Shown one piece after another: positions 4,212-39,908 of a stretch of DNA of 64,000 bases. Numbering within the stretch: the stretch's first letter is position 1; each line of letters starts with the position of its first letter. The position numbers and the translations under genes were made by a program. This stretch comes from a virus. The stretch lies in IMG/VR virus record IMGVR_UViG_3300032284_002783, positions 1 through 64,000 of that record; one strand, 5' to 3'. The notes beneath the pieces were generated by a model. That model had not been told where the DNA came from. It worked only from the letters and a program-made list of their open reading frames with translations, and searched no databases.

Positions 4212-5177
4212 TTACTGTAGAACGATTTCAACTCTACGGTTTTGTGGCTCACGAGCATTTGGTCCAGTCTGAACCATTAGTCCCTGTTCGCCCTTGCCAA
4301 CTACAGAAATTGCGCTGGCTGGTACGCCTTCAGCAACCAAAGCGTTCTTAACGCTGGTAGCTCTACGTAGGCTTAGTGCCATGTTATAGCTTTCTGGTCC
4401 ACTGGTGTCAGTGTGTCCTGTAGCAGTAATCTGAGCAGTGCCCTTTGAACGATATGCGCTAGCAGCTTGCTTGATTACATTCATGCCTGCGGCAGTGATG
4501 TTGCTCTTGTCCCAATCAAAGAATACCATAAAGCTGGTAGCTGCTGGTGCTGCTGCAACTGGCACTGGTGCCGGAGCCGGAGTATCAAACTTATATGTAA
4601 GGCTCAGCATAACGCCGATGTTGTTGTTAGTCCATTGTGCATTGTTTACACTAGGATTGGTAGTTCCGTAATAACGACCATCGAGATTAACACGAAGGTT
4701 TTCTGTTGCCTTATAACCTACACCGACAATGCCCTGATATGCAAGTGCAGTGCTGCTGAGAGGGCTGTTGCCGTCTACCAGAGCAAGACCTGCGCCTACA
4801 CCAGCATATGGGGTAATAATGCTGTCTGGCATAAAGTCATAAAGAGCATTTACCATAAATGCTAGCTGTCCGACCTGATTGCCAAGTGCAGTGTTTGGAA
4901 CGTTTACGTTAGTTGGATTGTAGCGATAAACAGTTTCGAACTCAACACGTGGTCCGACAAAGTCGTATCCGAACACGCCACCAACTGCCCAACCTGTCTG
5001 TGGTGTAACACCTACAACTGGAGCAGCCATTACGTTTGTATTAGCATTGAAATTGGTCATCCAATTAAGACCACCTTCAATGCCTGTATAAAATCCCTGA
5101 GTCTGAGCGTTAGCAGTCTGGGTCAAAACTAGACCAGCCACAGCGCAACCAAGGGCAAGCTTTAGTACTTTCTTCAT
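4212..5177 (-). CDS. ompA: OmpA-family outer membrane protein (beta-barrel plus OmpA C-terminal peptidoglycan-binding domain)
   Basis: Signal peptide, barrel strands (TPYAGVGAG), Pro/Ala linker, VFFDWDKS, GHTDTSG..YNMALSLRRA, NRRVEI. Confidence 0.93.
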   Translation of the reverse strand: MKKVLKLALGCAVAGLVLTQTANAQTQGFYTGIEGGLNWMTNFNANTNVMAAPVVGVTPQTGWAVGGVFGYDFVGPRVEFETVYRYNPTNVNVPNTALGNQVGQLAFMVNALYDFMPDSIITPYAGVGAGLALVDGNSPLSSTALAYQGIVGVGYKATENLRVNLDGRYYGTTNPSVNNAQWTNNNIGVMLSLTYKFDTPAPAPVPVAAAPAATSFMVFFDWDKSNITAAGMNVIKQAASAYRSKGTAQITATGHTDTSGPESYNMALSLRRATSVKNALVAEGVPASAISVVGKGEQGLMVQTGPNAREPQNRRVEIVLQ

Positions 5178-5305: not shown

Positions 5306-6061
5306 ATGATTAAATTCCATGCAACCCCCATCTCATTAAATTTGATACATCTAATTGCTACCATAGCCGGTATAGTATGGATATGTATCTCTCCATTTCA
5401 ATACATCAATTTGGTTTTCATATTCGTAGGCTATTTCCTCTTAGCCGGAGTTGGACACGAAATTTTTTATCACAGATATTTTTGTCATAAAAGTTTTGAA
5501 ACATATTTGCCTGTACAGTGGGTTGGACTTGTGTTAGGTGTGTTAGCCGGCCGAGGAAGTCCAACGGATTGGACAGCAATACATAGATATCATCATAAAT
5601 TTGCCGATAGTGATTTAGATCCACACAACCCGCGCAAGGAAAAATGGCGTGCATTTTTTCCTTATTTCTTTTTATATGATCAAAAAATTAATCCATTTAT
5701 TGTAAAAGATCTTTTGAAATCTCCTGTACAACGATTTATCAATAACTATTATAACTTGATTATTATATTGTTTGCAGTGTTATTTGCTGTGATAGATTTG
5801 AATTTATTTTTCTATCTATGGGTTATTCCCATGGCTATCACTGGTTGGATGATTTCTTTGGGAACTGTTCTTAGCCACACATACGGTTATAGAAATTTCA
5901 ACAGTAATGATAAATCGACTAATAACTTTATTATGAGCATTTTGTTATGGGGTCAAGGTTGGCATAACAATCATCATGCACAGCCAACAAGATGGGATTT
6001 AAGGATCAATTGGTGGGAAATAGATCCTTGTGCGTGGGTAATAAGATGTATTAAGCGCTAG
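5306..6061 (+). CDS. Membrane fatty acid (acyl-CoA delta-9-like) desaturase 1
   Basis: His boxes HRYFCH, HRYHH and HNNHH; TM helices; WWEID tail. Confidence 0.9.
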   Translation: MIKFHATPISLNLIHLIATIAGIVWICISPFQYINLVFIFVGYFLLAGVGHEIFYHRYFCHKSFETYLPVQWVGLVLGVLAGRGSPTDWTAIHRYHHKFADSDLDPHNPRKEKWRAFFPYFFLYDQKINPFIVKDLLKSPVQRFINNYYNLIIILFAVLFAVIDLNLFFYLWVIPMAITGWMISLGTVLSHTYGYRNFNSNDKSTNNFIMSILLWGQGWHNNHHAQPTRWDLRINWWEIDPCAWVIRCIKR

Positions 6062-6683
6062 TTGTAGTTGCTTGAGGCCAATTTGGATTATAACCATCTA
6101 CTAGATTTCTATATATTACGTACTGCTCTGTGTTTTGTATTAATGCTTTATAAGGTAGTGGAATAAATTCCCTATAAAATGTTGAGCTTAAACTACCAAA
6201 TAGAAAATATTTGTCTTTGATTTTTTCATACTTGCCCTGACGATTCATCGACATCATTACCCGCTTATTATATTCATTAAAAGTTAGCGCAAATACTTTT
6301 GCACCCTCTTTTTTAGCCCAGTCGATATGAATAGGCATTATGTGTTCTGCCACAACAATGCTTCCTCGATACTTTGGCATTTTCCATGCACGCACAGCAC
6401 CGATTACTACATTAGGATCAAACTCCGCTTTGTAAGATCCACTAGATGCTACAATTTCGTTGTTTTCATCATATAAAAAGCTAAAAATACCATTATCAGA
6501 TTTAAATCTATCAGTTTTTAGTAATAGATACAGCAAGGTGTTATTTTTGTTTTCCCAATCTGTGTATGCCATATTTGCACTGGCAGGTCGTTTGCTGTCC
6601 AATTCACATTTTTTACAGAATGAAAAAATGTCGTTTAATGTTTGATCATCGATGTTTTCAGGATCAACGGTTTTAACCTGCAT
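6051..6683 (-). CDS. GNAT-like hypothetical protein
   Basis: RAWKMPKYRG and WAKKEGAKVFALTFNEYN resemble acetyltransferase motifs A/B. Confidence 0.55.
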   Translation of the reverse strand: MQVKTVDPENIDDQTLNDIFSFCKKCELDSKRPASANMAYTDWENKNNTLLYLLLKTDRFKSDNGIFSFLYDENNEIVASSGSYKAEFDPNVVIGAVRAWKMPKYRGSIVVAEHIMPIHIDWAKKEGAKVFALTFNEYNKRVMMSMNRQGKYEKIKDKYFLFGSLSSTFYREFIPLPYKALIQNTEQYVIYRNLVDGYNPNWPQATTTSA

Positions 6684-7557
6684 TTGTGCCTTTCAATAAT
6701 TCCACTAATTGATTATATTCTATTTTGAAAACGCCGTCCATAGTTTTTCTTTTTTCTTTGAGAATTTGAATATTTGTAATTGAGTTAAAATCTTCTAACT
6801 TATCAATTTGTTCATAGCCGGTATATTTAGGTCTTTCTTCTAATTCAAACATTCTTGTATATACAGACCGGCGACTAGAAAAGGTTCCTAACTTTCCAGG
6901 TAATCTGTTGTTACCCAATTCAACAATAGTTGGATCTAATAAAAATGATAAAAAGGTTTCTGGTGTCCATGAATGAAAGGCACTGGTTCCTTTAAGTAAT
7001 CCTTTTTTGTAAAGATTGCCCCAGCCTTCCCAGGCTTCTTTTTGAGTGTAGTACCATAATCCGCTTGATAAATCTGGAGAAAGATATGGTTCTTCATTAC
7101 CACATAAAACACTGCCTTTTAAATCTAATGCTGCTTTCATTGTAGTAATATATTGATATGTACCAGAATTAGCCATTTCAGCAATTTCCAAAAATTCTCT
7201 GCTATTGACAAATTTATGAAAATCAATGTCTATAACCAATGGTTGCAGATTTCTTTTTTTACAATATCTAAACGCATGATCGAGATCGTGTTGGTTTAAT
7301 TGTGGATGAATGTTAACTATCACAGGAATTATTGGTAATTTGAGAGTTAAAAATGCTTCTAGCATTACTTCGCTGTCAATTCCTCCACTGTACAAAGCGT
7401 ACAAAGTACCTTCTCTGTTATTCCAAATCTCCTGGGCATTGATTAATAATTCTTCGCAATAAGTTTTTGGACTTCTACTCGTAGGAGATATTTCCAGACA
7501 AAAAGTCTCGGCTGTACCATGTGATTTTATAAAATTATTTTTTCGATATTCGATCAT
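6673..7557 (-). CDS. PP-loop (adenine nucleotide alpha-hydrolase) ATPase
   Basis: ALYSGGIDSE PP-loop, C-terminal RPKYTGYE; start placed at the MIEY ATG. Confidence 0.75.
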   Translation of the reverse strand: MIEYRKNNFIKSHGTAETFCLEISPTSRSPKTYCEELLINAQEIWNNREGTLYALYSGGIDSEVMLEAFLTLKLPIIPVIVNIHPQLNQHDLDHAFRYCKKRNLQPLVIDIDFHKFVNSREFLEIAEMANSGTYQYITTMKAALDLKGSVLCGNEEPYLSPDLSSGLWYYTQKEAWEGWGNLYKKGLLKGTSAFHSWTPETFLSFLLDPTIVELGNNRLPGKLGTFSSRRSVYTRMFELEERPKYTGYEQIDKLEDFNSITNIQILKEKRKTMDGVFKIEYNQLVELLKGTNAG

Positions 7558-7643
7558 TATTCTGCACCTGAACATTTATTTTATCATATGAAAGAGGATA
7601 TAATCAACTTTACATTTTGATAGCGTGCTGTATAATTTTTAAT

Positions 7644-8216
7644 ATGAACGAAGAATTTATATTACCTTTTGATAAGGTTGCTATCAGTACCGAAGATGAA
7701 GCATATATCTATAACTTGTTAAAATCACATGACCAGTCAAAAGTGCTTGACTATCATGGATATCTACATCCAAAATTAACATTTAAAACTAAGTTCGCTC
7801 AGGAATTAAAAGCGTTTGGAGACACTATTGGTTTGAGATTAGCAGGAATTTACGCTTTTACGGCCAATGCAAATACCACAACCAGTATACACATCGATGG
7901 TAATATCGAGTCTGGACCGTTGCCTTGGAGAATATGTTGGTATTGCCGAGGAGATGCTGGCACATTAAGCTGGTATCCAACTGATTCAAATACAGTGTTT
8001 GATAATCATGTTGGTGCATACGTATTACCACGTACCATTGAACCAATTGCCTCAGTTAAGCTCAATATGAAAAGTGCTATCATACGCACTGAAATACCTC
8101 ATCTATTAGATTTATCAGGAACCACTGTAGATAGACTGACTATTACTGCTACATTTAAACCATATATAAGTTGGCAAGAATTAAGAGCTAGATTAAACAA
8201 TGTTAAGACTTGCTGA
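7644..8216 (+). CDS. Cupin/2OG-Fe(II) dioxygenase-like protein
   Basis: IHIDG (HxD) ... IPH ... DRLTI pattern; TATAAT just upstream of the ATG at 7644. Confidence 0.55.
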   Translation: MNEEFILPFDKVAISTEDEAYIYNLLKSHDQSKVLDYHGYLHPKLTFKTKFAQELKAFGDTIGLRLAGIYAFTANANTTTSIHIDGNIESGPLPWRICWYCRGDAGTLSWYPTDSNTVFDNHVGAYVLPRTIEPIASVKLNMKSAIIRTEIPHLLDLSGTTVDRLTITATFKPYISWQELRARLNNVKTC

Positions 8217-8748
8217 TCAATCTGATTTCCAAAACATATATGATTTAATTAAATCAAAAACTAAAATTTTTGAATCGCCGTTTATTCCAGATAGCTTTGA
8301 TACTTTCTGCCGCAGATTACAAAGTGGCAACACAACTAGAATTTTTCTATCTTTCAATGATACCATTTTACAAGGTATATTGTTCACAAGATTAATCACC
8401 AATGTGATCCCAGCATGGTATTCGCATTTGATTGTAGTTAAAAACGGATTAACTTTGCGTACGAGTCATTCAGTACAAGCATCGCTGTATGATTCTGCAA
8501 TCGATTATTATGAACAAGAGAATATTAACATGTTTTTCTATGTTCAACCCATAAGATATGAAAAGCTATTGAACAATCCGGTGAGACAATTATCATCAAA
8601 GTTACAAGGATATTCTAGCGTTATAGTAGATAGTATTCCCGCCGGGGTTTCAAATGACTCAATTCTTATAAAAACACTATTACAAGATAGAACACCTGTT
8701 GTAGATGTTAGAGTAATTATGAAAGTAAAGAAGGATCAAATAATATGA
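8200..8748 (+). CDS. GNAT-fold-like hypothetical protein
   Basis: MLRLADQSDFQNIYDL start typical of GNATs; LYDSAIDYYEQE. Confidence 0.45.
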   Translation: MLRLADQSDFQNIYDLIKSKTKIFESPFIPDSFDTFCRRLQSGNTTRIFLSFNDTILQGILFTRLITNVIPAWYSHLIVVKNGLTLRTSHSVQASLYDSAIDYYEQENINMFFYVQPIRYEKLLNNPVRQLSSKLQGYSSVIVDSIPAGVSNDSILIKTLLQDRTPVVDVRVIMKVKKDQII

Positions 8749-9521
8749 TTAATCCGCATTTTATTAAACTTACAATACCTGTACATTGCTTATTATTATT
8801 GTCGTTTTTTATGATACATTGGACAGTGTGGAACATAATTGGAATTCTAATTTTATGGACATTGATTGGCGGGTTTGGTGTAGCTGTAGGGTATCATAGA
8901 TTATTTGGTCATAGAAGTTTTAACACGCATCCTGTAATAGCTAAGATATTAGCTTATTTGGGATTACTAAGCGGAGACGGTAGTTTAATTTTTTGGGTAG
9001 CTTTACATATTGGCATTCATCACAAATATGCTGACAAAGAACAGGACCTACACTCTCCTATAAAGGGTTTATGGAGTTCATTTATCGGATGGCAGAGTAA
9101 AATAAACCAAAACACCATAAGCTTATTACCAGCTAGGGCATTATTAAAAGACAAGTACTATGTGTTTTTACATGATTATTACTACGTTATTTTTTGGTTA
9201 ACGTTCATTATATTGGCAGGCATTAGTTGGCAATTTGCACTAGGAATTTTTATTCCTGCTTCAATACTAAGTCATCATCAAGATAACTTAGTTAATGTGG
9301 GTGGTCATCTACGTAAAGCTGGATATAGGAATTTTGACATAAACGATAATTCAACTAATAATTGGTTTACAGGTTTATTTGTATGGGGTCAAGGTTGGCA
9401 TAATAATCATCATGCTAGACCAAATGATTCAAATTTTGGCGGTCAACAATGGTGGGAATTTGACAGCGCACATAGATTATTAATTCCTCTGATAAGGAGT
9501 AAAAATGAAAGTAATACTTAA
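8745..9521 (+). CDS. Membrane fatty acid desaturase 2
   Basis: HRLFGH, HIGIHH and HNNHH boxes. Confidence 0.9.
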   Translation: MINPHFIKLTIPVHCLLLLSFFMIHWTVWNIIGILILWTLIGGFGVAVGYHRLFGHRSFNTHPVIAKILAYLGLLSGDGSLIFWVALHIGIHHKYADKEQDLHSPIKGLWSSFIGWQSKINQNTISLLPARALLKDKYYVFLHDYYYVIFWLTFIILAGISWQFALGIFIPASILSHHQDNLVNVGGHLRKAGYRNFDINDNSTNNWFTGLFVWGQGWHNNHHARPNDSNFGGQQWWEFDSAHRLLIPLIRSKNESNT

Positions 9522-10881
9522 ACAAAATTGGAACTCAACAGTATCTGGGTCATATAAGATTTATACTATAGGTATTGATACAGAAAAAGTTCTTAGTAAT
9601 ATTACAAATCTACCGCAATGGGTTTCCACTGTAACATCACGCTTTGCAGTTATCGTACTTGATAATGATGAAATAACATTTGCTGCCGTAGATCATCTAT
9701 CAAATTATCCATTGTATTATTCTGATACATTTATCACTGATAATTGGTTTTATGTAGATTCAAATCGTTTGGAATTTACAGAGAATAAAGTTGTATCAAA
9801 GGAGACATGGCTGTTAGCTGGACAAAATTTATCAGCAGATACTTGCTTCAATGAAGTAAAAAGAATAATGCCAAATCATTATCTAAAACAGCAAAAACAA
9901 TATCAGTATAGATGGATGAATAGGTTGCCATATGCCAAAGATAATATACGAGATTTTATCGTAAACAAGTTTCTTGAATTGGAACAGACAGATAATACAT
10001 TAATGTTTAGCGGTGGCGTTGATAGTGTATTCTTAATGAATCTTGTTGTGAAGTATGGAACAAAAAATTGGCGTTTTATTCACATGCACAGCGACAGCGA
10101 TTTTCATAATGAAACTGCTGCGGTTGAATATTTTGAAAAATTTTATAATGTAAAGGTAGAAAAATACAACATCGATAACACTCATCTTTTAACCAGTTCA
10201 CAGATAGATAAAATTAATTACCTAGAAAAACAAACTAATTTTCCTAACTATTGGTATCATGACGAGTTGTATGGGAAATTCATTATGTTTGAAATGGCCT
10301 CGGTAAAAAATGAATTAATTTGGACGGGTGAAGTTGCAGATCAACTATTTGGCAATCCTAAAATCAATGCGTTAGTACCAACATGGCTACAAACTAAGAA
10401 CTCCGATGCAATTGCCGATCTTTGGATTGATACAACCAGATCATTAGTAAAGAGTTGGATCAGTGATGTAAACAAAAATCATGTGATCAAACAAAAGTTA
10501 AATGATCAAAGCGACGGCATATACTGGCAGACAGCATATGATAATATAAAGCGGGATCTAATTAGAATATTAGAAGAAGGGAATATTGAAGATATTGTTG
10601 TGCGTTTCACTAACTACAATTATTTGATTAAAGGACAGTTACGTGTTTGGCCATATTCTCAATTGCCAATGTACAATTTTTGTAACTTGTTTACACACTA
10701 TGAACTTGCTCCAATGGTGTTCAGTTTATCTTCAAACGAGCTGGCACCAAATTCTCTTTTTAAAGGATACCTATATAATTTGTTTCCCAATGATCTACCC
10801 ATTTATGCATGGGAACTTCCTAAAACGGGACCAACTCAAAAAATTAAAAGGCTTTATGATGAATTTATCAGTAAATTTTAA
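9505..10881 (+). CDS. Asparagine synthetase-like amide ligase
   Basis: N-terminal DHLSNYPLYY (GATase-like remnant without N-terminal Cys), FSGGVDS PP-loop, TGEVADQLFG. Confidence 0.75.
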   Translation: MKVILKQNWNSTVSGSYKIYTIGIDTEKVLSNITNLPQWVSTVTSRFAVIVLDNDEITFAAVDHLSNYPLYYSDTFITDNWFYVDSNRLEFTENKVVSKETWLLAGQNLSADTCFNEVKRIMPNHYLKQQKQYQYRWMNRLPYAKDNIRDFIVNKFLELEQTDNTLMFSGGVDSVFLMNLVVKYGTKNWRFIHMHSDSDFHNETAAVEYFEKFYNVKVEKYNIDNTHLLTSSQIDKINYLEKQTNFPNYWYHDELYGKFIMFEMASVKNELIWTGEVADQLFGNPKINALVPTWLQTKNSDAIADLWIDTTRSLVKSWISDVNKNHVIKQKLNDQSDGIYWQTAYDNIKRDLIRILEEGNIEDIVVRFTNYNYLIKGQLRVWPYSQLPMYNFCNLFTHYELAPMVFSLSSNELAPNSLFKGYLYNLFPNDLPIYAWELPKTGPTQKIKRLYDEFISKF

Positions 10882-11299
10882 ATCAATAAAATTCAATAAC
10901 ATAGTAATAGTTTCTAATAGAGCTGCATATGACTGGTATATGCAAAACTTTTTTCCATATTACAGCCAGGTATGGCTTTATTGTGTTGAACCAAATGTAA
11001 TAGATGACGAGTTGTCGTCAGAGTTGAAAAATCAAATTGAGAACAACGAATCTATAAATGTAATTATTTTTGGAATTCAAAACTATACCAAATTTAACAG
11101 AATTAGAACACAGAAAATATTAGTGATGGACAATATAATAATGAAATCAAAATTGTTGAATATGATTAATAGAAGTATAGTTGAAATTATTTCAGGATAC
11201 TGTCAACAATGGTTTAATATAGACAGAATTCCAAATAAAGAAATTTGGACAAATAGCTCATTGTCTAAAAAAGGCGATATATATACGTTGTTAGGATAA
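10856..11299 (+). CDS. Hypothetical protein
   Basis: ORF filling the gap in the operon; start moved to an ATG near the upstream stop. Confidence 0.5.
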   Translation: MMNLSVNFKSIKFNNIVIVSNRAAYDWYMQNFFPYYSQVWLYCVEPNVIDDELSSELKNQIENNESINVIIFGIQNYTKFNRIRTQKILVMDNIIMKSKLLNMINRSIVEIISGYCQQWFNIDRIPNKEIWTNSSLSKKGDIYTLLG

Positions 11300-11304
11300 A
11301 CAAT

Positions 11305-12159
11305 ATGACAGCATGTACATGGACTTTTGGAGAACATGGATTTTATTTTAAACCACTAACAAGATTTCCAGAGATATGGAAACAAGAAGTTTATAATACG
11401 GCCAAACTTATTAGAAATAACACAGATAGAAAAATCTTTGTTTGCATGAGCGGCGGCATTGATAGCGAGATAGTTGCCAGATCTTTTTATGATCAAGATA
11501 TTGATTTTTCAGCTGTAATTTTAGAATATGATAATGAACTTAATACGCATGATATATCTTATGCTAAGAATTTTTGTCAGCAAAGGAACATAAAAACTCA
11601 TATCATAAAAATAAATTTGATAAACTTTATTGAATTAGACATCCCTAATTATATCAAATCTGGATATTATGCAACAAATATTTTTAGATTTATTCAACGT
11701 CGATTAATTGAGGAAGTTGAATTGTTAAATGGATGTGCAGTTTTAGGCGGCGGCGAACAAATATTTGTTGGACATAATAATGAAGTATGTTTAACCAAGT
11801 CACTTGATGCATGGTCCTCCGTTCAATTTGCACAAGAGCTACATACTAATCATTGCGTTGAATTTTTTATGCATAATCCGGAGATACAGTATGCATGGAT
11901 GTGCGAACCAATTATAGAGATAATGACCGCTAATTCAGAATATTATCCTGTTGATTTAAAGATGAGTATAGAGAAAATAATCATTTATCATAGATACTGG
12001 AATGAGATGATTCATAGAAAGAAATATTCAGGCTATGAGAAAATACAATCGTTTAGAGAACAAGTTGAAAAAAAATTGAAAACACAGTTTACAAATTTGA
12101 TCCAATATCACATTCCAATATCTAAAATTAAAAACGATCTTTTGAAAAATCTTAATTAA
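11305..12159 (+). CDS. PP-loop ATPase, paralog of 6673..7557
   Basis: CMSGGIDSE, NTHDISYAKNFC and RKKYSGYE motifs shared with the paralog. Confidence 0.75.
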   Translation: MTACTWTFGEHGFYFKPLTRFPEIWKQEVYNTAKLIRNNTDRKIFVCMSGGIDSEIVARSFYDQDIDFSAVILEYDNELNTHDISYAKNFCQQRNIKTHIIKINLINFIELDIPNYIKSGYYATNIFRFIQRRLIEEVELLNGCAVLGGGEQIFVGHNNEVCLTKSLDAWSSVQFAQELHTNHCVEFFMHNPEIQYAWMCEPIIEIMTANSEYYPVDLKMSIEKIIIYHRYWNEMIHRKKYSGYEKIQSFREQVEKKLKTQFTNLIQYHIPISKIKNDLLKNLN

Positions 12160-12533
12160 AGAAGAGTTATGTTTGAGCCGTTTAATTCGTTAGGATCAAA
12201 TTGGTTAGATTTCCATGTAACCGTCCAACCGTTTGCTCTGAATTTATCAAAAATAGTAGCATCGTTATCGGCATAGAATGTATCGCCGGCTTGTTTGTCG
12301 CTCCACACCCGATGAAAAGACACTGTTTGTTCATCGGGTCGAGTAATAAATGAAACAACTGTTAAGCTGCTTGCTCCGTCAACTCTCTGAGCATAATCAG
12401 TTCCAGCTGTTGCAATATCTTGCATAGCCTTAATTTCTTTTCTAAAATCAGCTAAACCAGCCGGTGTCAAGGGCGTAGATAACCCTTCTTTTGAATAAGA
12501 AATAATGTATTCTTGTAAATTAGCAGTTGTCAT
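12156..12533 (-). CDS. Small hypothetical late protein
   Basis: 125 aa, GGAG RBS, TAAATA upstream (about 12565-12570). Confidence 0.7.
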   Translation of the reverse strand: MTTANLQEYIISYSKEGLSTPLTPAGLADFRKEIKAMQDIATAGTDYAQRVDGASSLTVVSFITRPDEQTVSFHRVWSDKQAGDTFYADNDATIFDKFRANGWTVTWKSNQFDPNELNGSNITLL

Positions 12534-12593
12534 TTAAATCTCCGTAGGATGGTATATTTTGATATATTTATTAAGTCGTAATATAATATTTAT

Positions 12594-13229
12594 ATGTTTA
12601 TTTTTGATCTCAATAAAAAAGACGATGCATTTAAGTGCCAATTCTTATTCAAAGAAACAGAGTTTACAATTCATAGCTTATCCTATGATCCCAGTCCAAT
12701 TAAGCAATCTTGCTATGTAATTGGATATGTTGAGAGCTTACATGCACATGGTTGCGTACTGGAGCACAAAAATGTTGCAGGATCCTTTGTAGATGTAGAA
12801 GCTATTTCAGGTACAGGATTCTATATTACCAGCAGAAGTGATTGCGAATTTACAAGGTTTGCTGAGCCAAATATTCATGCAGAAGGAGCACTAAAATATA
12901 TAGATGGCTGTAGTAATACTGAGCTAATATCTCCGGTTAAAGTTGGTTTACCGACTGTAAACTACTTACATGTTCCTAGCAATACCACCCAAACATCTCA
13001 TATACACAAAAGCGCCAGAGTTGGTTGGATAGCCAAAGGTAATGGCTATGCCGTAACTGACACAGATAGGCACGTTTTATCAGAAAATATTATGTTTTTC
13101 CTTCCGGCATATGAAAATCATTATTTTGAAACCAAGCAGGATTCATTGTCTATAATTGTTTTTCATCCCGATTCTGACATTGGCCCGACCGACGAAAACA
13201 ATAATATGAAGGTAAGAACTCACATATAA
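12594..13229 (+). CDS. Cupin-domain protein
   Basis: LKYIDGCS, QTSHIHKSARVG, ENHYF, FHPDSDIGPTDE. Confidence 0.7.
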   Translation: MFIFDLNKKDDAFKCQFLFKETEFTIHSLSYDPSPIKQSCYVIGYVESLHAHGCVLEHKNVAGSFVDVEAISGTGFYITSRSDCEFTRFAEPNIHAEGALKYIDGCSNTELISPVKVGLPTVNYLHVPSNTTQTSHIHKSARVGWIAKGNGYAVTDTDRHVLSENIMFFLPAYENHYFETKQDSLSIIVFHPDSDIGPTDENNNMKVRTHI

Positions 13230-13232
13230 ATA
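13225..13232 (+). promoter_or_regulatory. Late promoter TATAAATA 5 nt before ATG (leaderless)
   Basis: TATAAATA-ATTTT-ATG. Confidence 0.6.
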
Positions 13233-13237
13233 ATTTT

Positions 13238-14002
13238 ATGTCTATAAAATCACTTGTTCGATCAAATACAATTTATTTGCCCTGGTTACAAATAATTCTC
13301 TCTGCGTTGGCTATTATTGGGGTATGCGTTTTTCCATCAGTTGGAATGTTCTGCATAAGTTTGGTCTTGTATGCCTTAATTGGTTGTTTCGGCATAAGCA
13401 TAGGCTATCATAGATACCTTAGTCACAAATCCTTTACATTTAAGAAATCATGGCTACAATGGCCTTGTATCTTTTTAGGATGCTTAGCTGGCACCGGTAG
13501 TCCTATAGGGTGGGTAGCAGTACACAGAGAGCATCACAGACATAGTGATCGTACCGGAGATCCGCATAGTCCTCATACAATAGGATATAAGAGTCTTCTA
13601 GCAAATTATCAGTATGAATGGAATAAATGGCCAATTAGAGATTTGATTAGCAATCCAACTCATAGATTTATACACGATTACTATTTTATTTTATTAGCAG
13701 TCTGGATAATAGCATGGGCTATTATTGGACTGCCGTTTTTGATATATGTTGTAATTTTACCGATGGTGTTGGCTATTTGGGCAAGTACTATTTCAAATTA
13801 CATCAATCATAAATTTGGTTATAAAAATTACAAAACTATCGACGAAAGTAGAAACTGCTGGTACACAGCATTATTAACTTTTGGCGAGGGCTGGCATAAC
13901 AACCATCATGCTAGACCAAAGAGTTACAGATTTGGTCAAAATTGGTGGGAACTTGATCTTGGTGCTTTTTTAATAGAAAGATTTTTTGCCCGTGATCTTT
14001 AA
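13238..14002 (+). CDS. Membrane fatty acid desaturase 3
   Basis: HRYLSH, HREHH and GEGWHNNHH boxes. Confidence 0.92.
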   Translation: MSIKSLVRSNTIYLPWLQIILSALAIIGVCVFPSVGMFCISLVLYALIGCFGISIGYHRYLSHKSFTFKKSWLQWPCIFLGCLAGTGSPIGWVAVHREHHRHSDRTGDPHSPHTIGYKSLLANYQYEWNKWPIRDLISNPTHRFIHDYYFILLAVWIIAWAIIGLPFLIYVVILPMVLAIWASTISNYINHKFGYKNYKTIDESRNCWYTALLTFGEGWHNNHHARPKSYRFGQNWWELDLGAFLIERFFARDL

Positions 14003-14501
14003 AACCAACCTTCAAATTGATTTGCCAAGACTGGTTAAAGATTTATCTCGCTATATTGATGTCTTCGACCAATTTAATCAATTATCTATTGTATATGATG
14101 AAAATAGATTGGTAGAAAATATCGAACCACATTATGTTGCTATCGGCAAAAGTCCACCAGACATTGATCAATGGAATCTTAACAAAATTTGTCCTTTATT
14201 TGCAAATAGTTATTTTGCGGAAATATTTGATCTAGTTCCATATAAGAAGCAACGTGCTAGAATAATGAGAATGGCACCTCGTAGCACATACAGTATGCAT
14301 GTTGATTCATATAAACGTTTGCATTGGGCTTTAATAACAGATCCTAGCTGTCATTTAACTTTTCAAAATAATGAACAATTTTTTGGTTGGCATATTCCGG
14401 CCAACGGTTTTGCATATCTTGTTGATACCAGAAAGATGCACTCTGCAGTAAATCCCTGGGATCAATATAGATATCATTTTGTTATTGATATAAAGGATTA
14501 A
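13986..14501 (+). CDS. Aspartyl/asparaginyl beta-hydroxylase-like 2OG-Fe(II) oxygenase
   Basis: RARIM..YSMHVD..RLH..VDTRKMHSAVN...RYH. Confidence 0.7.
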   Translation: MPVIFKTNLQIDLPRLVKDLSRYIDVFDQFNQLSIVYDENRLVENIEPHYVAIGKSPPDIDQWNLNKICPLFANSYFAEIFDLVPYKKQRARIMRMAPRSTYSMHVDSYKRLHWALITDPSCHLTFQNNEQFFGWHIPANGFAYLVDTRKMHSAVNPWDQYRYHFVIDIKD

Positions 14502-14503
14502 AC

Positions 14504-14650
14504 ATGAAACTACTAGTATTTCTTATATTATTGGCAATTTTGTTTGTTCTGTTTCCAGCTAAAGTTTTAGCAGCTATAATTTTAATTAGTTCTGGATTTT
14601 TATCGCTGGCTATTTTGGTATTTGTGCTAATTGCTTGTCTTCTTGGATAA
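14504..14650 (+). CDS. Small hydrophobic membrane peptide (48 aa)
   Basis: AAGGA RBS; MKLLVFLILLAILFVLFPAKVLAAIILISSGFLSLAILVFVLIACLLG; below the ORF-track cutoff. Confidence 0.6.
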   Translation: MKLLVFLILLAILFVLFPAKVLAAIILISSGFLSLAILVFVLIACLLG

Positions 14651-15064: not shown

Positions 15065-15625
15065 ATGTCTAATATTTATTATGTATATGCATATATAAGA
15101 ACTAAAAACTCAGCAACTGCTAACGCAGGTACACCATATTATATTGGTAAAGGTAAAAATCGTCGTGCATGGGAAAAGCATATAGTACCACGGCCAATAG
15201 ACAAAAATTATATAGTTATTGTGGAATCAAATTTAACTGAAGTTGGCGCACTTGCATTAGAGCGCAGATTAATAAAATGGTATGGCGGGAAAGATTTAGA
15301 AACAGGTATATTACTTAATAGGACAGATGGCGGCGATGGCGGATCTAATATTGTTTATGAAAGGACATTAGAGCATAAACAGAATCTGTCAAATGCATTG
15401 AAAGGCAAACCAAAATCTAATGAAATGAAAAAGAAATTGTCCATTACAAACACAGGACGAAAACTATCAGAATCTACGAGGAAGAAAATATCAGAGAATA
15501 ACAAAAACAGGGTATTATCTGACGAAGTATTAGCTAAGCTTAAAATGCCAAGATCTGATGATATAAAAAGAAAAATATCAGAGTCGGTTAAAAACTCTTA
15601 TCGTTTAAGAAGATTAAAACACTGA
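15065..15625 (+). mobile_element. Free-standing GIY-YIG homing endonuclease with NUMOD3-like repeats
   Basis: YYVYAY...[18 protein letters not shown], repeated (H/T)K.KISE modules; TAAATA and AGGAG upstream. Confidence 0.85.
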
Positions 15626-16529
15626 GATTACATGTTTTACATTAGTACCTTGAGGATTATTATGAGTCTTGCGAACTCGTTTCCCTCAACATCCACTGTC
15701 CCCTCATATTGTGAGACAGTCTACTAACAATGTCGCCTTTTTTAAGGTCAGGCAGTAGACCTTTCATGCAGTGCTACTCTACAACTTTTGCACCGTTAGC
15801 CTTGCGAGCTATTCGAGAGCGCTAACCCTCTACGACACATCTGTTACAGACCAACTCCACCTTGCGAGTTTTGTTGGGCTTGGTTCTCTTACGAGCCAAG
15901 CATTAGACATCTTTCACACTACACAGGGCCAGGCTTTGCGTTTTTGTAATCGAAAGTTGGACTTGAACCAACATACGACTGCTTGGAATGCAGTTGCCTA
16001 AACCATTCGGCTATATCGTTTGAACCTACTGTGATGTGCTGGCCCTGTTGCTGCATACCTTGTTAGATACACAATACAACACACCACCTGTATTTCGTCT
16101 TGCAGACTACTTTACCGTTTACCTGGACACTGTCTAGCCTTACGAGCTAGCCAATCCCCTCAAAACTGCCAACCGCCCTTGGCTGCAAAGCCTCGAACTT
16201 GTTTGACTATCCATTATCTATCAGCATTCTGTTGGTTTGCGTGCAAAGGTGATACTTGCGGTATCTTACTCCTCACCGATTGGCTCTGGAGCACATCCTT
16301 TCGGACCTTTACCCAACTGTCCTGCTTACCACCCCTTTCGGATGGCTCCTTTCGGAGCAGACTGGACTTGCATAGTGGACCCTATTGCTAGGTGCTGGTA
16401 GGTAGGCCTTCCAGCTTTGGGTCAGTTGCCTGACTTATTCCATTAATGGCGCTATGCCGCCAATGCTTATTTTACATTTTATAGAACAAAAACTTTGCAC
16501 ATTCGCTTGCGCTTGTGTGCGCCGTCTAT
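15616..16529 (-). ncRNA. GOLLD-like giant ornate RNA (about 900 nt)
   Basis: No credible ORF; about a dozen GNRA-capped hairpins on the minus strand; 3' end CAGUGGAUG..GAGGGAAA..AAUAAUCCUC..UGUAAUCUCAG resembles the GOLLD 3' domain as recalled; own sigma70 promoter. Confidence 0.75.
15948..16020 (-). tRNA. Degenerate tRNA-Gly(UCC)-like domain embedded in the GOLLD-like RNA
   Basis: D arm GCCGAAUGGUUUAGGC, anticodon arm ACUGC-AUUCCAA-GCAGU, T arm GUUGG-UUCAAGU-CCAAC; acceptor stem has two mismatches and no CCA. Confidence 0.6.
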
Positions 16530-17833: not shown

Positions 17834-18054
17834 GTTAGTTTAAAAACCATTGCATCTTCTTGATTTGAAAAAATTAATCTATAGCTATCGTCAACAAAGA
17901 CAAAATTCCAAGTCTTTCCAATCTTTCCAAAATTGGTTTGTAACCATTCTCCAACTTCTAGCCTCAAGCTACACCACGATCTACCAATTAACAGCACTGG
18001 ATGGTTTTTAGTCTGGGCCGACCGATCATCTATAGGAAGCTCAACTATAACCAT
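17824..18054 (-). CDS. Small paralog-family protein
   Basis: Ends LIFSNQEDAMVFKLTWL; start at MVIVEL. Confidence 0.7.
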   Translation of the reverse strand: MVIVELPIDDRSAQTKNHPVLLIGRSWCSLRLEVGEWLQTNFGKIGKTWNFVFVDDSYRLIFSNQEDAMVFKLTWL

Positions 18055-18488
18055 GTTAGTGTAAACATAGCACAATCTTCTCGATTTTCAAAGTAAAATC
18101 TGCTAAATCTCATATCAAAAATATATCCACATTCGCCCAAGTTGTGGATGCACCAAAGCTTCGCCTCTCCAGCTTTTTTATAATCGTTAACATAAACCCA
18201 CGGATAGTTTGCTGCCACGATATCGGCGTGCAAAGTAAACTTACGTCTATCATATAAACGCAAGAATTTCTTAAAATGTCCAGGTTGTAGAGGTATTTTT
18301 AATCTGTTATCATATTTACGTTTGGATTTAGACCCGTATCTAATACTGAAAATTTGACCAGTAGGTGCAGTCATTGGCTGTACACCAATAATATCATTAG
18401 CGACAACTGTTGGAACGGCTCTATGGAGTATTGTTGTTACTACCTGTGATATGGATTCTTGTGTTGATACAGTATCAGACATAGACAT
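18045..18488 (-). CDS. gp23 major-capsid motif fused to a paralog-family domain
   Basis: HRAVPTVVANDIIGVQPMTAPTGQIFSIRY plus C-terminal FYFENREDCAMFTLTWL. Confidence 0.7.
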   Translation of the reverse strand: MSMSDTVSTQESISQVVTTILHRAVPTVVANDIIGVQPMTAPTGQIFSIRYGSKSKRKYDNRLKIPLQPGHFKKFLRLYDRRKFTLHADIVAANYPWVYVNDYKKAGEAKLWCIHNLGECGYIFDMRFSRFYFENREDCAMFTLTWL

Positions 18489-18535: not shown

Positions 18536-19408
18536 ATGTGTGTTATAGCAGTGAAATATCTACCAGAAATTGGTTGGATAGGTGTAAAAAATAGAGATCG
18601 CGGATATTATCCAGAAATCAATATACGTAAAAGTACCAAGCATGGCATTGAACGCTGCTATATCTGGGATGCAAATACCAAGTATACAGAAGGTGTAAAC
18701 GAGCACGGCGTTAGTATTATATCGGCTAGCATGGCCACTATTAGTGATGAAAAAGGTGCAGGAACCACTACACACGAAGGTACAAATAAAAATTATATGA
18801 GTCCAGATGGTAAAAAGATTCGCACCGCGCTTTTAGAAAAAACCTGTAAATCTGCATTGGAATGCTTGGTTGAAAAAGAACTTACAGGACATACGTTTGT
18901 TTTTAATGAGAACGAATGCTACATTCTTGAGAGTGGTTACAGAAACGGAACGTTTGTTTATAAGATACAGGAAATACAACCTAATCAAGTCTGCGTTAGA
19001 ACTAATCACGGAATACTGTTGCCATGGGCAGGATATCAACGTGTGCAGACAGATCCTTCGCATAGTCGTAAACGTGTTAGCAGCGAAGTACGTAAGATTA
19101 AAAGTGAACTAGGTATGATTCCTAGCAAAACTGTAAAAGAAGCACTTAACAGTATTATGGATCACAGTGAGCCTAATCCTCAACTTAATCCCTGCAGAAT
19201 AGATGACAGAGATGGTTATATGAAAACCACTGGACAAATAGCTATAGTTCCAAAACATAGAAAACTATATTATCGTCCAATTTGGAGTGCCTTAGAAGTT
19301 GATTTTAATAAAATCAATCACGGGCATAGTAAAACATTTTTTGAAGTAATTGATGTGCCAGCTGATACAGCTAAAGCCAGTGCTAAATTAAAAATTGCAA
19401 AAAGTTAG
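18536..19408 (+). CDS. N-terminal nucleophile (Cys) hydrolase, C45/NRDE-like
   Basis: MCVIAVK...KNRDR...EGVNEHG...RTNHG. Confidence 0.7.
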   Translation: MCVIAVKYLPEIGWIGVKNRDRGYYPEINIRKSTKHGIERCYIWDANTKYTEGVNEHGVSIISASMATISDEKGAGTTTHEGTNKNYMSPDGKKIRTALLEKTCKSALECLVEKELTGHTFVFNENECYILESGYRNGTFVYKIQEIQPNQVCVRTNHGILLPWAGYQRVQTDPSHSRKRVSSEVRKIKSELGMIPSKTVKEALNSIMDHSEPNPQLNPCRIDDRDGYMKTTGQIAIVPKHRKLYYRPIWSALEVDFNKINHGHSKTFFEVIDVPADTAKASAKLKIAKS

Positions 19409-19746
19409 ACGTGAAAACTTTGACCGCACCCGCAACGACCTTTCTCGTTGGGATTAGTGAAAAAGAAACCGTTTGAAAATTCTTCTTCTTTATAGTCCAT
19501 AATTGAGCCAATTAAAAAAAGTATACTTTTTCTGTCTATGAGAATCTTAATATCATCTATAGCAATTACTTCATCTTGTGCATCTATGCTATCGCTGTAT
19601 TCTAATGTATAACTTAGGCCGCTGCAGCCTTTAGTACGAATACCAATTCTGATGCCAGCTGTGTCTTTTGACCTAGCAGCAATCATTTCTTTTATTTTAC
19701 TTGCAGCTAACTCAGTTACCTGTAGTAGCTGAGGACGATTCTTCAT
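19405..19746 (-). CDS. iscA: Fe-S cluster assembly A-type carrier IscA
   Basis: KGCSGLSY...RCGCGQSF; start at MKNRPQ. Confidence 0.92.
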   Translation of the reverse strand: MKNRPQLLQVTELAASKIKEMIAARSKDTAGIRIGIRTKGCSGLSYTLEYSDSIDAQDEVIAIDDIKILIDRKSILFLIGSIMDYKEEEFSNGFFFTNPNEKGRCGCGQSFHV

Positions 19747-21154
19747 GGGCTGGTTCCATTTGCTTTTTGCGATAATCTTCAATAGCAGCTTTAATAGCAT
19801 CTTCAGCTAACACGCTGCAGTGTATTTTTACTGGTGGCAGGCTTAAATGCTGAGCGATATCTGTATTTCTAATACTAGCTGCTTCGTCTAGAGTTTTACC
19901 TTTAACCCATTCAGTTACTAGGCTTGACGCCGCAATCGCTGAACCACAGTTATGAGAACCAACCCTATTTGAGAAAAAAACATGAGCACCATCGTCTAAT
20001 TTTAAATCATATACTATTACAGTCTTACCGTCGCGTTCACATCCTCGTAATTGATTTAGGTGAGTAATTGGCGAGATGTTGACTATTTTGATTCCGTTAT
20101 GTATAAAATTTTGTACTTTTGGTAGTGCAGTTTCTATATCTTCTATTGCTAAAAATAATGAATCGTATCCAGCAGTTGCAAGTTGTTGGCGGCGTTGCTC
20201 TACATAATTAGATTCCTCAGACCTATCTTGCATAAATTTAGGCATACGTTTTGTGTAAACTTCTATGCATTTTTTCTTACCGGGAACGATAAAGTCTGGA
20301 CTAGCAGGACCATTTATGGTTTGAATCCAAATTTTGCCAGCACTCCACACTGCTGCTACATTGTTTTCTTCAAATAAATTAATATATGTTTGTTCGATGC
20401 TAGTAGGTAAAGACCAATCACGGCGTGACATACCTTCCTGCCATTTTTTAATGTACTCACTATCTTGCCATTTTTTTAGGCTCGCTTCACGTTGTTTCTT
20501 TTTCATTGTTACCGGATCTTTACATATGAATCCGGGTTGGTTTTGTGGTAATACAGAATGATCAAAATTTTTGTTCCATTCTTTCATTCTAACACTACTT
20601 TTTTCTTTAAAATTAGCACGATGTCTAATGTTAGTTAATATTCTTAATTCGTGTTCAGTTATTTCATATAGTTCTTGACCAACCTGTAGTTGTTGAGCTT
20701 CAACCGGTTGATTATTTGCATTCCAAAATATATGTTCTTTTGTGCAAATTAGAGAGAATGTGCCAGCATTGATATTTTTTCGGCTGGATTTACGTCTAAA
20801 AGTAACAACTAATAAATCATTAATGTCAACAGAATGCTTGATAATATCTCTTATTTTTTGATTAACAATTCTTTCGCCATTCCAAGCCAGTACTTCGTCT
20901 CCTATATTTAAATCTTTGATTTTTTTAACACAGGTTGGTGTATTAATTGGAGCATTGCTGGTCAAGCAACCAAATGTTTTGAACTTAGCATCTTCAATAA
21001 GTCCTTCTGGACTTACTTTGATTTGCAGCTTCATAACATCTCCGCAAGCCGGAGCTCCTACTAAACCGGTTCCAACATTAGAATCTAGTTTATCAAGTGA
21101 TCCTATATTTCTAGGATTTTCATAATGATCTATTAGCCTACTGCTGTATGTCAT
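19712..21154 (-). CDS. iscU: Fe-S scaffold IscU interrupted by an intein
   Basis: DHYENPRNIG, GAPACGDVM, KTFG|intein|CGSAIAASS, LPPVKIHCS; spliced product about 140 aa. Confidence 0.93.
   Translation of the reverse strand: MTYSSRLIDHYENPRNIGSLDKLDSNVGTGLVGAPACGDVMKLQIKVSPEGLIEDAKFKTFGCLTSNAPINTPTCVKKIKDLNIGDEVLAWNGERIVNQKIRDIIKHSVDINDLLVVTFRRKSSRKNINAGTFSLICTKEHIFWNANNQPVEAQQLQVGQELYEITEHELRILTNIRHRANFKEKSSVRMKEWNKNFDHSVLPQNQPGFICKDPVTMKKKQREASLKKWQDSEYIKKWQEGMSRRDWSLPTSIEQTYINLFEENNVAAVWSAGKIWIQTINGPASPDFIVPGKKKCIEVYTKRMPKFMQDRSEESNYVEQRRQQLATAGYDSLFLAIEDIETALPKVQNFIHNGIKIVNISPITHLNQLRGCERDGKTVIVYDLKLDDGAHVFFSNRVGSHNCGSAIAASSLVTEWVKGKTLDEAASIRNTDIAQHLSLPPVKIHCSVLAEDAIKAAIEDYRKKQMEPAHEESSSATTGN
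19949..20968 (-). mobile_element. Intein (340 aa) with internal Vsr/DUF559-like endonuclease
   Basis: Block A CLTSNAPI, block B CTKEHIF, block F VYDL, block G SHN followed by Cys+1; internal SPDF...CIEV nuclease motif. Confidence 0.9.
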
Positions 21155-21485: not shown

Positions 21486-21962
21486 TTAGTCTTTTTTACC
21501 TTCAATCAAATTGCCGGTTGGATTAGTTCCAATGGCAATCTTTCGAGGCTTCATTGCTTCGGGTAGCTCATATGCAAAGTCAATAGTGAGCACACCATCT
21601 GACAGGTTACTAGTTGTTACCTGAATGTATGCATTCAAGTAAAAAGTACGACGGAAGCTACGTCCAGCAATACCCTTGTAAAGATATTTCTTATTATCTT
21701 CCTTGGCGATTTTGCCTTCAATAGTTAGTACGCCGTCCTGCAGTGTGATATTGATATCATCTGCAGTAAATCCTGCCACTGCCATACTTAGACGATAGTT
21801 ATTTTCGTCAATCTGCTCTAGATCGTATGGTGGATAGCTTGTACCAGCTGAATTTCTCACCTGATCAAGCATACGGAAAGTAGGTTCAAAACCTACGGCC
21901 ACACGATTGAGATCACGAAAAATATCGTCAAAGTAATCAGTCATTGTAGTAAGTCCTCGCAT
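21486..21962 (-). CDS. ibpA: Small heat shock protein (IbpA/Hsp20)
   Basis: SYPPYDL, MAVAGF, YLYKGIAGRSF, PEAMKPRKI. Confidence 0.93.
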   Translation of the reverse strand: MRGLTTMTDYFDDIFRDLNRVAVGFEPTFRMLDQVRNSAGTSYPPYDLEQIDENNYRLSMAVAGFTADDINITLQDGVLTIEGKIAKEDNKKYLYKGIAGRSFRRTFYLNAYIQVTTSNLSDGVLTIDFAYELPEAMKPRKIAIGTNPTGNLIEGKKD

Positions 21963-22037
21963 GTTTACCTCCTATATTAAGCGAAGTATATTAGTGAAAC
22001 CCTTTTAGGCATCTCACTGGCTAGATTTTATCTAGCA
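21963..22037 (-). promoter_or_regulatory. ROSE-like RNA thermometer in the sHSP 5' UTR
   Basis: Two upstream hairpins, then UACUUCGCU-UAAUAU-AGGAGGUA pairing the U(U/C)GCU motif with the SD. Confidence 0.7.
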
Positions 22038-22043
22038 CTGTAT

Positions 22044-22072
22044 ATATAAGCATAACTAGGTACAGTGTCAAG
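22044..22072 (-). promoter_or_regulatory. RpoH-like heat-shock promoter
   Basis: CTTG-N18-CTTATAT, close to the alphaproteobacterial RpoH consensus. Confidence 0.5.
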
Positions 22073-22077
22073 AGCTG

Positions 22078-22392: not shown

Positions 22393-22428
22393 AGGTTGTA
22401 TCCTTTTACAATTTATTTTGAAAGAAAT

Positions 22429-39709: not shown

Positions 39710-39877
39710 ATGGGCAAACCAAATTTTATAAAAGGTAAGACCGCATGGAACAAAGGAAAAAATAATCCTAATGCTGCCGAAAACGGTAAAAAAGGAGCAT
39801 TATTACAATCTATCAAGGTCATTGGTCGAAAACGAAAATATAATGATGACGGTACATGGTCATGGTATTACCCATAA
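39710..39877 (+). pseudogene. Remnant of homing endonuclease DNA-binding tail
   Basis: 55 aa KGKTAWNKGK..GRKRKY.DDGTWSW; no nuclease domain upstream. Confidence 0.5.
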
Positions 39878-39880
39878 TAA

Positions 39881-39908
39881 AATAAGGGAGCATTAATGCT
39901 CCCTTATT
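39881..39908. terminator. Intrinsic terminator after tmRNA
   Basis: AATAAGGGAGCA-TTAA-TGCTCCCTTATT. Confidence 0.8.

Follow-up and report, generated by a model that had tools for sequence, protein, structure and literature searches.

Why would a phage carry three membrane desaturase genes packed within 9.3 kb among genes for acyltransferases, amide synthetases and oxygenases? The question is raised by an island in IMG/VR virus record IMGVR_UViG_3300032284_002783, of which we analysed the first 64 kb (64,000 nucleotides; hereafter, the window) out of 76,657 bp. Phage lipid desaturases have so far been seen as lone, host-like fluidity genes. In this island they stand at the centre of a conserved enzyme set: the island is a single phage's form of a mosaic toolkit, widespread and largely carried by viruses, whose conserved core consists of a GNAT-fold acyltransferase, at least one SCD-type desaturase and a stand-alone AsnB-type amide synthetase, and in which AspH-type or cupin oxygenases are usually present. 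This finding points to a specific lipid-like compound that the phage causes to be made or edited during infection.

Linkage of the enzyme genes across viral loci

Relatives of Des3, one of the three desaturases of the island (Table 1), are encoded by 485 viral stretches. Among the best 80 of these, 45 loci have a homologue of the GNAT-fold protein GNAT210 and 39 have a homologue of the PP-loop protein PP300, with one to eight desaturase genes in each locus. For fishing with GNAT210 and PP300 we used alignment subsets A3 and A4: a desaturase (sought within 8 kb of GNAT210) is present in 49 of the 54 loci fished with GNAT210, and PP300 in 30, while the 44 strongest loci fished with PP300 include 38 with a desaturase and 26 with GNAT210. 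Across 141 non-redundant loci, GNAT210, a desaturase and PP300 occur together in 46, and in 29 of 66 cases GNAT210 directly adjoins a desaturase, 2.6 times the 11.1 cases expected from shuffling the genes inside each locus. A second GNAT-fold protein of the island, GNAT182, is directly upstream of a desaturase in each of the four non-redundant loci where it occurs. Some arrangements are kept between loci: ox199-GNAT182-Des in L044 and L168, and GNAT-Des-PP300-AspH, with overlapping gene ends, in L051 and L118, an order resembled in the island itself by GNAT182, Des2 and Asn458. An earlier note on this DNA, made from its letters alone, had named independent scatter of these genes as the observation that would speak against a shared system; we ran that comparison, and desaturase, GNAT and PP-loop genes proved to be linked across many viral contigs, with the trio present in well over a hundred besides this one. 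This linkage bears out the note's view that the island is more than a lone desaturase auxiliary gene. The neighbourhood is not a chance one, and it has the look of a genuine viral pathway that is still uncharacterised.

A collection of 5.8 billion proteins contains only 35 relatives of GNAT210, all metagenomic, unnamed and lacking a Pfam domain, and relatives at 75-86% identity exist. Searches of GenBank phages gave no match, whether by tblastn with GNAT210 (50,697 records) or PP300, or by megablast with the island; a scan of 185,579 species genomes with a GNAT210 subset found none, this being a pattern method and not proof of absence, and no relative came from a metagenome scan with GNAT210. 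A sequencing-run search listed no RNA run; the sole match listed was a DNA run, the likely source of the record. Thus, as far as these searches reach, the family appears limited to viral contigs and metagenome data, save for two loci filed under metagenome-assembled genomes (MAGs) of Crocinitomicaceae (L215) and Neomarinimicrobiota (L216; 335 kb). Each carries the phage-type island in full, with an Mtd_N receptor-binding gene, and both contigs are probably phage sequence that was mis-binned. A distant version occurs in the cultured Pelagibacter phage Mosig (L001, 7387-13640), which has a desaturase, two AspH genes, a methyltransferase-like fam3 member and a weak GNAT210-family member (hidden Markov model [HMM] E 5e-7) in an island adjoined by tail-fibre genes, and which may offer a cultured handle.

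The PP300 family is not strictly viral. Its members are found in MAGs of Alphaproteobacteria and Bdellovibrionota, where they usually come in tandem pairs. In the isolate Bradyrhizobium denitrificans LMG 8443 there is a chromosomal operon (L229:6999-12458) encoding a GT4 glycosyltransferase, a glutamine-synthetase-like ligase, two successive PP300 homologues and a GNAT (Acetyltransf_7). This operon holds no desaturase, and its GNAT has no sequence relationship to GNAT210 or GNAT182; it is a possible experimental entry point.

Related viral loci hold further enzymes: SPASM and B12 radical SAM enzymes, additional AspH genes, a methyltransferase-like family and Mtd_N receptor-binding proteins. 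Three families recur beside the module, for example in L005-L016 and L022-L031: fam5 and fam6, which lack Pfam matches and have an invariant HxD...H, and the methyltransferase-like fam3, which has a GGWxG motif. Fam6 adjoins PP300 in 11 of 16 cases, as compared with 1.6 expected; a profile search of the PDB with fam5 found nothing. None of these extra neighbour families is present in the window. The additions seen in related loci match what has been described as a hypervariable "host recognition cluster" in pelagimyophages and cyanomyophages (PMC7029224).

Enzyme classes encoded in the island

The island comprises three tightly packed units (Table 1), with genes in mixed orientation and overlapping ends. 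In unit A, Des1 converges on the minus-strand genes PP300 and GNAT210, overlapping the latter by 11 bp; PP300 in turn overlaps the start of GNAT210 by 11 bp, and this overlap suggests translational coupling. Unit B is a run of six plus-strand genes with overlapping ends (ox199, GNAT182, Des2, Asn458, an orphan open reading frame [ORF] and PP284), and unit C, also on the plus strand, consists of cupin211, Des3, AspH171 and a short hydrophobic ORF; a minus-strand orphan ORF stands between the two. Sigma-70-like sequences matching at 11 of 12 positions precede ox199 (7609-7636) and cupin211 (12559-12587). These are two of the three best such matches in 12 kb, where the total number of matches is not above chance, and are only a hint of promoters upstream of units B and C. 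GC content is 0.31-0.34 over 6-12 kb of the window and ~0.35-0.42 elsewhere, in agreement with the dense, AT-rich and mixed-orientation stretch that the earlier note had described.

Table 1. Genes and open reading frames of the island, with positions in the window
Feature	Description	Coordinates	Strand	Basis
Des1	SCD/DesC-type membrane desaturase, 251 aa	5306..6061	+	Pfam, His boxes, 4 hydrophobic spans
GNAT210	GNAT-fold acyltransferase, 210 aa	6051..6683	-	AlphaFold 2 (AF2) model, Foldseek/VIA; without Pfam match
PP300	Stand-alone AsnB-type synthetase domain, SGGIDS PP-loop	6673..7575	-	AF2 model, VIA
ox199	HxD...H oxygenase-like, virus-only family	7644..8216	+	Atlas model
GNAT182	Second GNAT-fold protein, 182 aa	8200..8748	+	Atlas model
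Des2	SCD-type membrane desaturase, 258 aa	8745..9521	+	Pfam
Asn458	AsnB-like (SGGVDS), remnant N-terminal domain, no Cys nucleophile	9505..10881	+	Family profile
Orphan ORF	~147 aa	10856..11299	+	No family match
PP284	PP300 paralogue, stand-alone AsnB-type synthetase domain, SGGIDS	11305..12159	+	PP300-family HMM
Orphan ORF	125 aa	12156..12533	-	No family match
cupin211	Cupin-like, HxH...H pattern	12594..13229	+	Marginal AraC_binding/Cupin_2 matches
Des3	SCD-type membrane desaturase, 254 aa	13238..14002	+	Pfam, SCD1 alignment
AspH171	Minimal Asp/Asn beta-hydroxylase-family oxygenase, 171 aa	13986..14501	+	Pfam Asp_Arg_Hydrox
Hydrophobic ORF	48 aa	14504..14650	+	Sequence, hydropathy

All three desaturases score above the gathering cut-off of Pfam FA_desaturase (PF00487; 29.7 bits): Des1 at 80.3 bits (E 2.5e-22), Des2 at 61.2 (E 1.8e-16) and Des3 at 68.9 (E 7.8e-19). 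Each has HxxxxH, HxxHH (HxxxHH in Des2) and HNNHH boxes and three to four hydrophobic spans, the His columns are invariant across an 18-sequence alignment, and an alignment of Des3 with mouse SCD1 (4ymk; E 6e-14) covers every His box; all three are intact, as had been claimed. Scores of 68-97 bits against the DesA-family equivalog model NCBIfam NF049918, whose cut-off is 400, mark them by sequence as relatives of DesA and not as DesA equivalogs. Des1, Des2 and Des3 are only 35-39% identical to one another, and a FastTree phylogeny of 203 sequences places them in three separate lineages, every one of which has an orthologue in other phage contigs (51% identity for Des1, in L003; 64% for Des2, in L044; and 56% for another orthologue in L003). 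With orthologues at 51-64% identity, closer than the paralogues are to each other, the three are old, separate lineages, probably kept as distinct functions. Desaturase genes adjoin one another 65 times where 21 are expected, with up to eight per locus, and for tandem paralogues of this age distinct specificities fit better than gene dosage.

PP300, PP284 and Asn458 each contain the SGG(I/V)DS motif that the earlier note had reported. We modelled PP300 with AF2 from a family alignment of 24 sequences (A2), obtaining a mean predicted local distance difference test score (pLDDT) of 92.7. By VIA, the model is closest to human ASNS (Z 14.6, 268 residues), followed by E. coli AsnB (13.3), beta-lactam synthetase (12.5), carbapenam synthetase CarA (11.9) and the hydroxyamidotransferase TsnB9 (10.6), and it superposes on the AsnB-class synthetase domain over 243-268 of its 300 residues. 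LarE, NAD synthetase, TilS and tRNA thiolases reach Z 8-10 over the nucleotide-binding core alone, and an N-acetyl sugar amidotransferase (8wex) ranks low (Z 5.5). We therefore rejected PP300 as a tRNA-modifying or thio-transfer enzyme, since TilS, TtuA, LarE and MnmA fit the nucleotide-binding core only and score below the AsnB class. PP300 has no match in Pfam, Asn_synthase included. Its paralogue PP284 matches the PP300-family HMM at E 6e-76 (27% identity to PP300) and has weak PP-loop matches to QueC, NadE and TilS; it, too, lacks a match to Asn_synthase. Asn458 scores 18.1 bits against Pfam Asn_synthase (cut-off 21) and matches TIGR01536 far under its cut-off (E 3.7e-10), in an alignment that begins at model position 97; a single-sequence search of the PDB found nothing useful, and a family profile found AsnB (1ct9, E 1.3e-10) and TsnB9 (E 4.6e-6). 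The Asn458 family is rare, with 40 representatives among 1.84 billion. With respect to a glutaminase, PP300 and PP284 (~300 aa) lack the N-terminal nucleophile (Ntn) domain, and Asn458 starts with MKVIL, with no Cys after the Met. From sequence and models, we consider all three to be AsnB-class, carboxylate-adenylating amide synthetases without a working glutaminase. One PP-loop enzyme had been called asparagine-synthetase-like: the class was correct, and it extends to all three. Because all three belong to that class, the predicted chemistry narrows, from the amide or thio transfer that had been considered, to carboxylate adenylation followed by amide formation.

The two GNAT-like proteins that had been noticed are both supported by fold. 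An AF2 model of GNAT210 (pLDDT 87; family alignment A1, 24 sequences) has only GNAT proteins as its top matches, with Foldseek E ~1e-6 and VIA Z 10-13 over 140-155 residues; with the family profile, the sole GNAT match in the PDB is 3t9y (E 5e-4). In the CoA motif Q/R-x-x-G-x-G/A, only the Arg (R106) is invariant in the 24 sequences, and the Gly positions vary. An Atlas model of GNAT182 aligns with GNAT clusters at template modelling (TM) scores of 0.65-0.69, and a single-sequence PDB search found nothing useful. Neither protein matches a Pfam Acetyltransf_* family, and hhalign found no sequence relationship between GNAT182 and the GNAT210 family. A complex prediction for Des1 and GNAT210 scored 0.25, below the mark, and we use it neither for nor against binding.

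Two HxD...H oxygenases had also been reported. AspH171 scores 27.2 bits against Pfam Asp_Arg_Hydrox (PF05118), above the cut-off of 22.6, and its family occurs in 25 of the 80 desaturase-anchored loci. The assignment of ox199 is by structural nearness: it has no Pfam match, a single-sequence PDB search found nothing useful, and its Atlas model is near Asp_Arg_Hydrox and 2OG-FeII_Oxy_3 (prolyl-hydroxylase-type) clusters at TM 0.62-0.70, the 0.70 being to a cluster in which 13% of members have PF05118. The reported cupin, cupin211, has marginal Pfam matches but is conserved in 13 viral loci beside the module. The reported membrane peptide exists as an extremely hydrophobic 48-aa ORF, which is not conserved: it has no homologue in the first 82 related loci that we fetched. 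Small, very hydrophobic ORFs outside larger genes were found in related viral loci only once, 3.4 kb from the module, and we rejected the ORF as a conserved precursor or membrane partner. The orphan ORFs 10856-11299 (no Pfam, PHROG or NCBIfam match) and 12156-12533 (no family match), which the earlier note did not list, likewise have no homologue in those 82 loci, and we regard all three ORFs as putative genes outside the conserved system.

Further along the window, an IscA-like Fe-S biosynthesis gene (19405-19800, minus strand) adjoins a NifU/IscU gene (19712-21154, minus strand) that is split by a Hint (intein-like) module. Homologues of the IscA-like gene directly follow AspH171 in L011, L014 and L017-L019. 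With these genes the phage may be providing iron, or assembling Fe-S centres, for the numerous iron enzymes that it encodes.

A candidate pathway and its alternatives

We propose, with a probability of roughly 40%, that the enzymes tailor a membrane-resident acyl compound bearing an amine and a carboxylate. The substrate that we infer is a single compound that combines an acyl chain with free amine and carboxylate groups, for example a lipo-amino acid or a host lipid that contains an amino acid, because N-acylation, carboxylate amidation and chain desaturation would be the simplest chemistry to employ all three core enzymes. In this scheme, the GNAT would acylate the amine; the AsnB-type enzyme would adenylate the carboxylate and convert it to an amide, using free ammonia or another amine as donor, given that there is no glutaminase domain; and the three di-iron desaturases, with the oxygenases, would place double bonds and hydroxyl groups at different points along the chain. 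The phage might gain a remodelled envelope or a lipid product during infection. It is a more doubtful proposition that large uncultured phages have a virus-specific pathway by which the infected cell is made to produce a family of uncharged, unsaturated or hydroxylated lipo-amino-acid amides, with the desaturases setting the pattern of double bonds, or by which host aminolipids are re-tailored in the same manner. If this were true, phages would be making lipids of a new class, and the asparagine-synthetase fold would have a use in lipid chemistry that is new. Phage-directed synthesis or editing of a lipid-like compound, if confirmed, would itself bring a new product class to phage-host biology, widen the substrate scope of AsnB-type enzymes and explain the arrays of oxygenases and other enzymes long noted in the hypervariable islands of large aquatic phages.

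Several observations weigh against tailoring of a single acyl compound. The nearest structures to GNAT210 are ordinary short-chain N-acetyltransferases, not long-chain acyl types. Neither an acyl carrier protein (ACP; PF00550, E <= 1) nor a 2Fe-2S ferredoxin was found in the 76.6-kb record, which is weak evidence because the record represents ~18% of the genome. The suggestion in the earlier note that an N-acyl group is made or attached found no support here. Cellular relatives of PP300 in the alphaproteobacterial and Bdellovibrionota MAGs mostly occur without desaturases. Moreover, our counts are inflated by the shared ancestry of contigs, yet the pairing recurs with two unrelated GNAT families.

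Other features of the loci would be expected if the genes were independent auxiliary genes gathered in a plastic region, with the desaturases raising the unsaturation of host membrane phospholipids, as cyanophage desaturases do, and the other enzymes serving unrelated targets. Gene order is highly mosaic among related loci, a desaturase stands alone in 26 of the 141 non-redundant loci while another 25 hold PP300 but no desaturase, and direct adjacency of PP300 to a desaturase shows no enrichment (17 cases, as compared with 13.7 expected); all of these also count against the pathway that we propose. Both parts of the alternative have precedents, in single phage desaturases with delta-9 activity on C16 (PMC5776448) and in the large hypervariable islands of unrelated enzymes in T4-like marine phages (PMC7029224). 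Independent acquisition is nonetheless hard to reconcile with a GNAT210 family that is only viral or metagenomic and has a desaturase alongside in 49 of 54 loci, with its 2.6-fold excess of adjacency to desaturases, or with the like pairing of a second, unrelated GNAT family in four of four loci; and it is hard to see membrane fluidity alone accounting for three to eight old paralogues of a desaturase in each phage. We consider this explanation unlikely, though it is the strongest of the alternatives.

A second alternative is that the enzymes tailor a peptide, as in systems for peptides made on ribosomes and then modified after translation (RiPPs), or a virion or tail-fibre protein: the AsnB-like enzymes would act on a carboxylate or form a lactam, AspH would act on Asp or Asn, and the GNAT would cap an amine. 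An asparagine-synthetase-like enzyme and hydroxylases do act on a peptide C-terminus in the nitrilobacillins (PMC13060819), the structural neighbours of GNAT210 include protein N-acetyltransferases, and SPASM, B12 radical SAM, methyltransferase-like and Mtd_N proteins are often encoded in related loci. However, the island of the window has no radical SAM gene, no gene for leader-peptide recognition or a protease was found, and no small hydrophobic ORF is conserved near the module (other kinds of precursor were not searched), the 48-aa ORF being unique to the window. The acylation of virion proteins that the earlier note had entertained is likewise not borne out, as nothing ties the genes to virion proteins. 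The defining partners are integral-membrane desaturases of acyl chains, and we regard peptide or virion tailoring as improbable.

Lastly, the enzymes might remodel host envelope glycolipids against superinfection, with the AsnB-like enzymes acting on the carboxylates of uronic acids or 3-deoxy-D-manno-oct-2-ulosonic acid (Kdo), the GNATs on amino sugars, AspH on lipid A in the manner of LpxO, and the cupin on sugar nucleotides. LpxO and OlsC are AspH-family hydroxylases of lipid acyl chains, in keeping with this idea; we know of no precedent for SCD-type desaturation of lipid A chains, which counts against it. Even though pelagimyophage host-recognition clusters are rich in lipopolysaccharide (LPS)-related genes, for which a role in changing the host surface has been proposed (PMC7029224), Mosig has its desaturase, AspH genes and distant GNAT210 relative in such an island beside tail-fibre genes, and the island in the window has a full-length OmpA-like gene directly upstream, we think glycolipid remodelling somewhat less probable still, because that island has no glycosyltransferase or sugar-nucleotide enzyme and the sugar amidotransferase 8wex scores low against PP300.

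Setting of the island and comparison with known systems

T4-type topoisomerase II subunits, a class I ribonucleotide reductase and baseplate-wedge-like proteins are encoded in the window and, with the provenance of the record in IMG/VR, confirm the phage origin that had been supposed for the island. The large subunit of the topoisomerase is nearest to those of Sinorhizobium phage Phosso and Agrobacterium phage Atu_ph07 (470-490 kb), at 49-54% identity. Given the size of these phages and a CheckV completeness of ~18%, the sequence identifies the record as a fragment of a very large uncultured phage. The window also contains a permuted (two-piece type) transfer-messenger RNA (tmRNA) gene (39854-40251, minus strand), with the tag peptide AANDNAPFLQAVA as predicted by ARAGORN. 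Permuted tmRNAs are typical of Alphaproteobacteria, and this one would fit the Rhizobiaceae-phage affinity of the topoisomerase.

The OmpA-like outer-membrane protein encoded upstream of the island (4212-5177, minus strand; 321 aa) has a beta-barrel and an OmpA C-terminal domain. In several alphaproteobacterial MAGs, a gene with an OmpA domain follows the tandem PP300 homologues, and only this domain matches the phage protein; its recurrence near PP300 in phage and MAGs may be a coincidence. Just downstream of the island are a homing-endonuclease-like gene with a NUMOD3 motif (15065-15625, plus strand), which has relatives in other viral loci, and a tRNA-Gly(TCC) gene (15946-16021, minus strand). 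A 147-aa ORF at 18045-18488 (minus strand) matches the Gp23 major capsid protein model at its first 48 positions only, and consecutive genes for Hsp20, a full-length translation initiation factor IF3 and a ClpX-like ATPase occupy 21486-24245 (minus strand).

Each of the enzyme families, the existence of phage desaturases and that of enzyme-rich hypervariable islands were already known, and in the literature that we searched we found no description of the desaturase-GNAT-AsnB-type trio, of the GNAT210 family or of multi-lineage desaturase sets. AsnB, beta-lactam synthetase, carbapenam synthetase and TsnB9 share the SGGxDS motif and the synthetase fold with PP300, whereas PP300 and PP284 lack the Ntn glutaminase. 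The JamABC and TtuABC cassettes for terminal alkynes and polyynes combine an ANL ligase, a dedicated ACP and a membrane desaturase-family enzyme that acts on the tethered acyl chain. They resemble the island in pairing an acyl-activating enzyme with a membrane desaturase; the island differs in having PP-loop amide synthetases and, in the record, no ACP. In the tailoring of aminolipids and lipid A, OlsB is an N-acyltransferase, and OlsC and LpxO belong to the AspH family. The same enzyme classes thus act on a lipid that bears an amino acid, a functional analogy only, AspH171 being a minimal, soluble form of 171 aa.

Among phage systems, the viral fatty acid desaturases (vFADs) of cyanophages are delta-9 desaturases that act on C16 (Roitman et al., ISME J 2017; PMC5776448), and they offer a precedent for desaturation of lipid chains by phage enzymes. 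Like Des1-3, they are short, phage-encoded DesC/SCD-type enzymes with three His boxes. By contrast, vFADs are single genes of cyanomyophages and close to host desC, whereas the island has three paralogues, 35-39% identical, with GNAT, AsnB-type and oxygenase partners, in a relative of Rhizobiaceae phages. The hypervariable islands of pelagimyophages and cyanomyophages, such as that of Mosig, are likewise dense in enzymes and non-syntenic, and they carry genes for AspH, radical SAM, acetyltransferase and desaturase enzymes close to those for receptor binding; they have been described as related to LPS or host recognition, without the trio being singled out (PMC7029224), and we identified no tail-fibre gene beside the island of the window.

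A documented parallel to the combination of a GNAT with an AsnB-like enzyme is the asnO-ngg pathway, which produces N-acetylglutaminylglutamine amide (NAGGN; Sagot et al., 2010, as cited in PMC8070244). There, as in the island, neighbouring genes encode a GNAT and an asparagine-synthetase-like enzyme, and the two cap, on a single small amino-acid substrate, its amine and its carboxylate. In Ngg, however, the GNAT is fused to a peptide ligase, and AsnO retains a glutaminase domain, whereas the GNATs of the island have a single domain, its AsnB-like enzymes lack a glutaminase, and desaturases are their constant partner. The asnO-ngg pathway thus provides a precedent for a GNAT and an AsnB-like enzyme acting together on one small amino-acid substrate.

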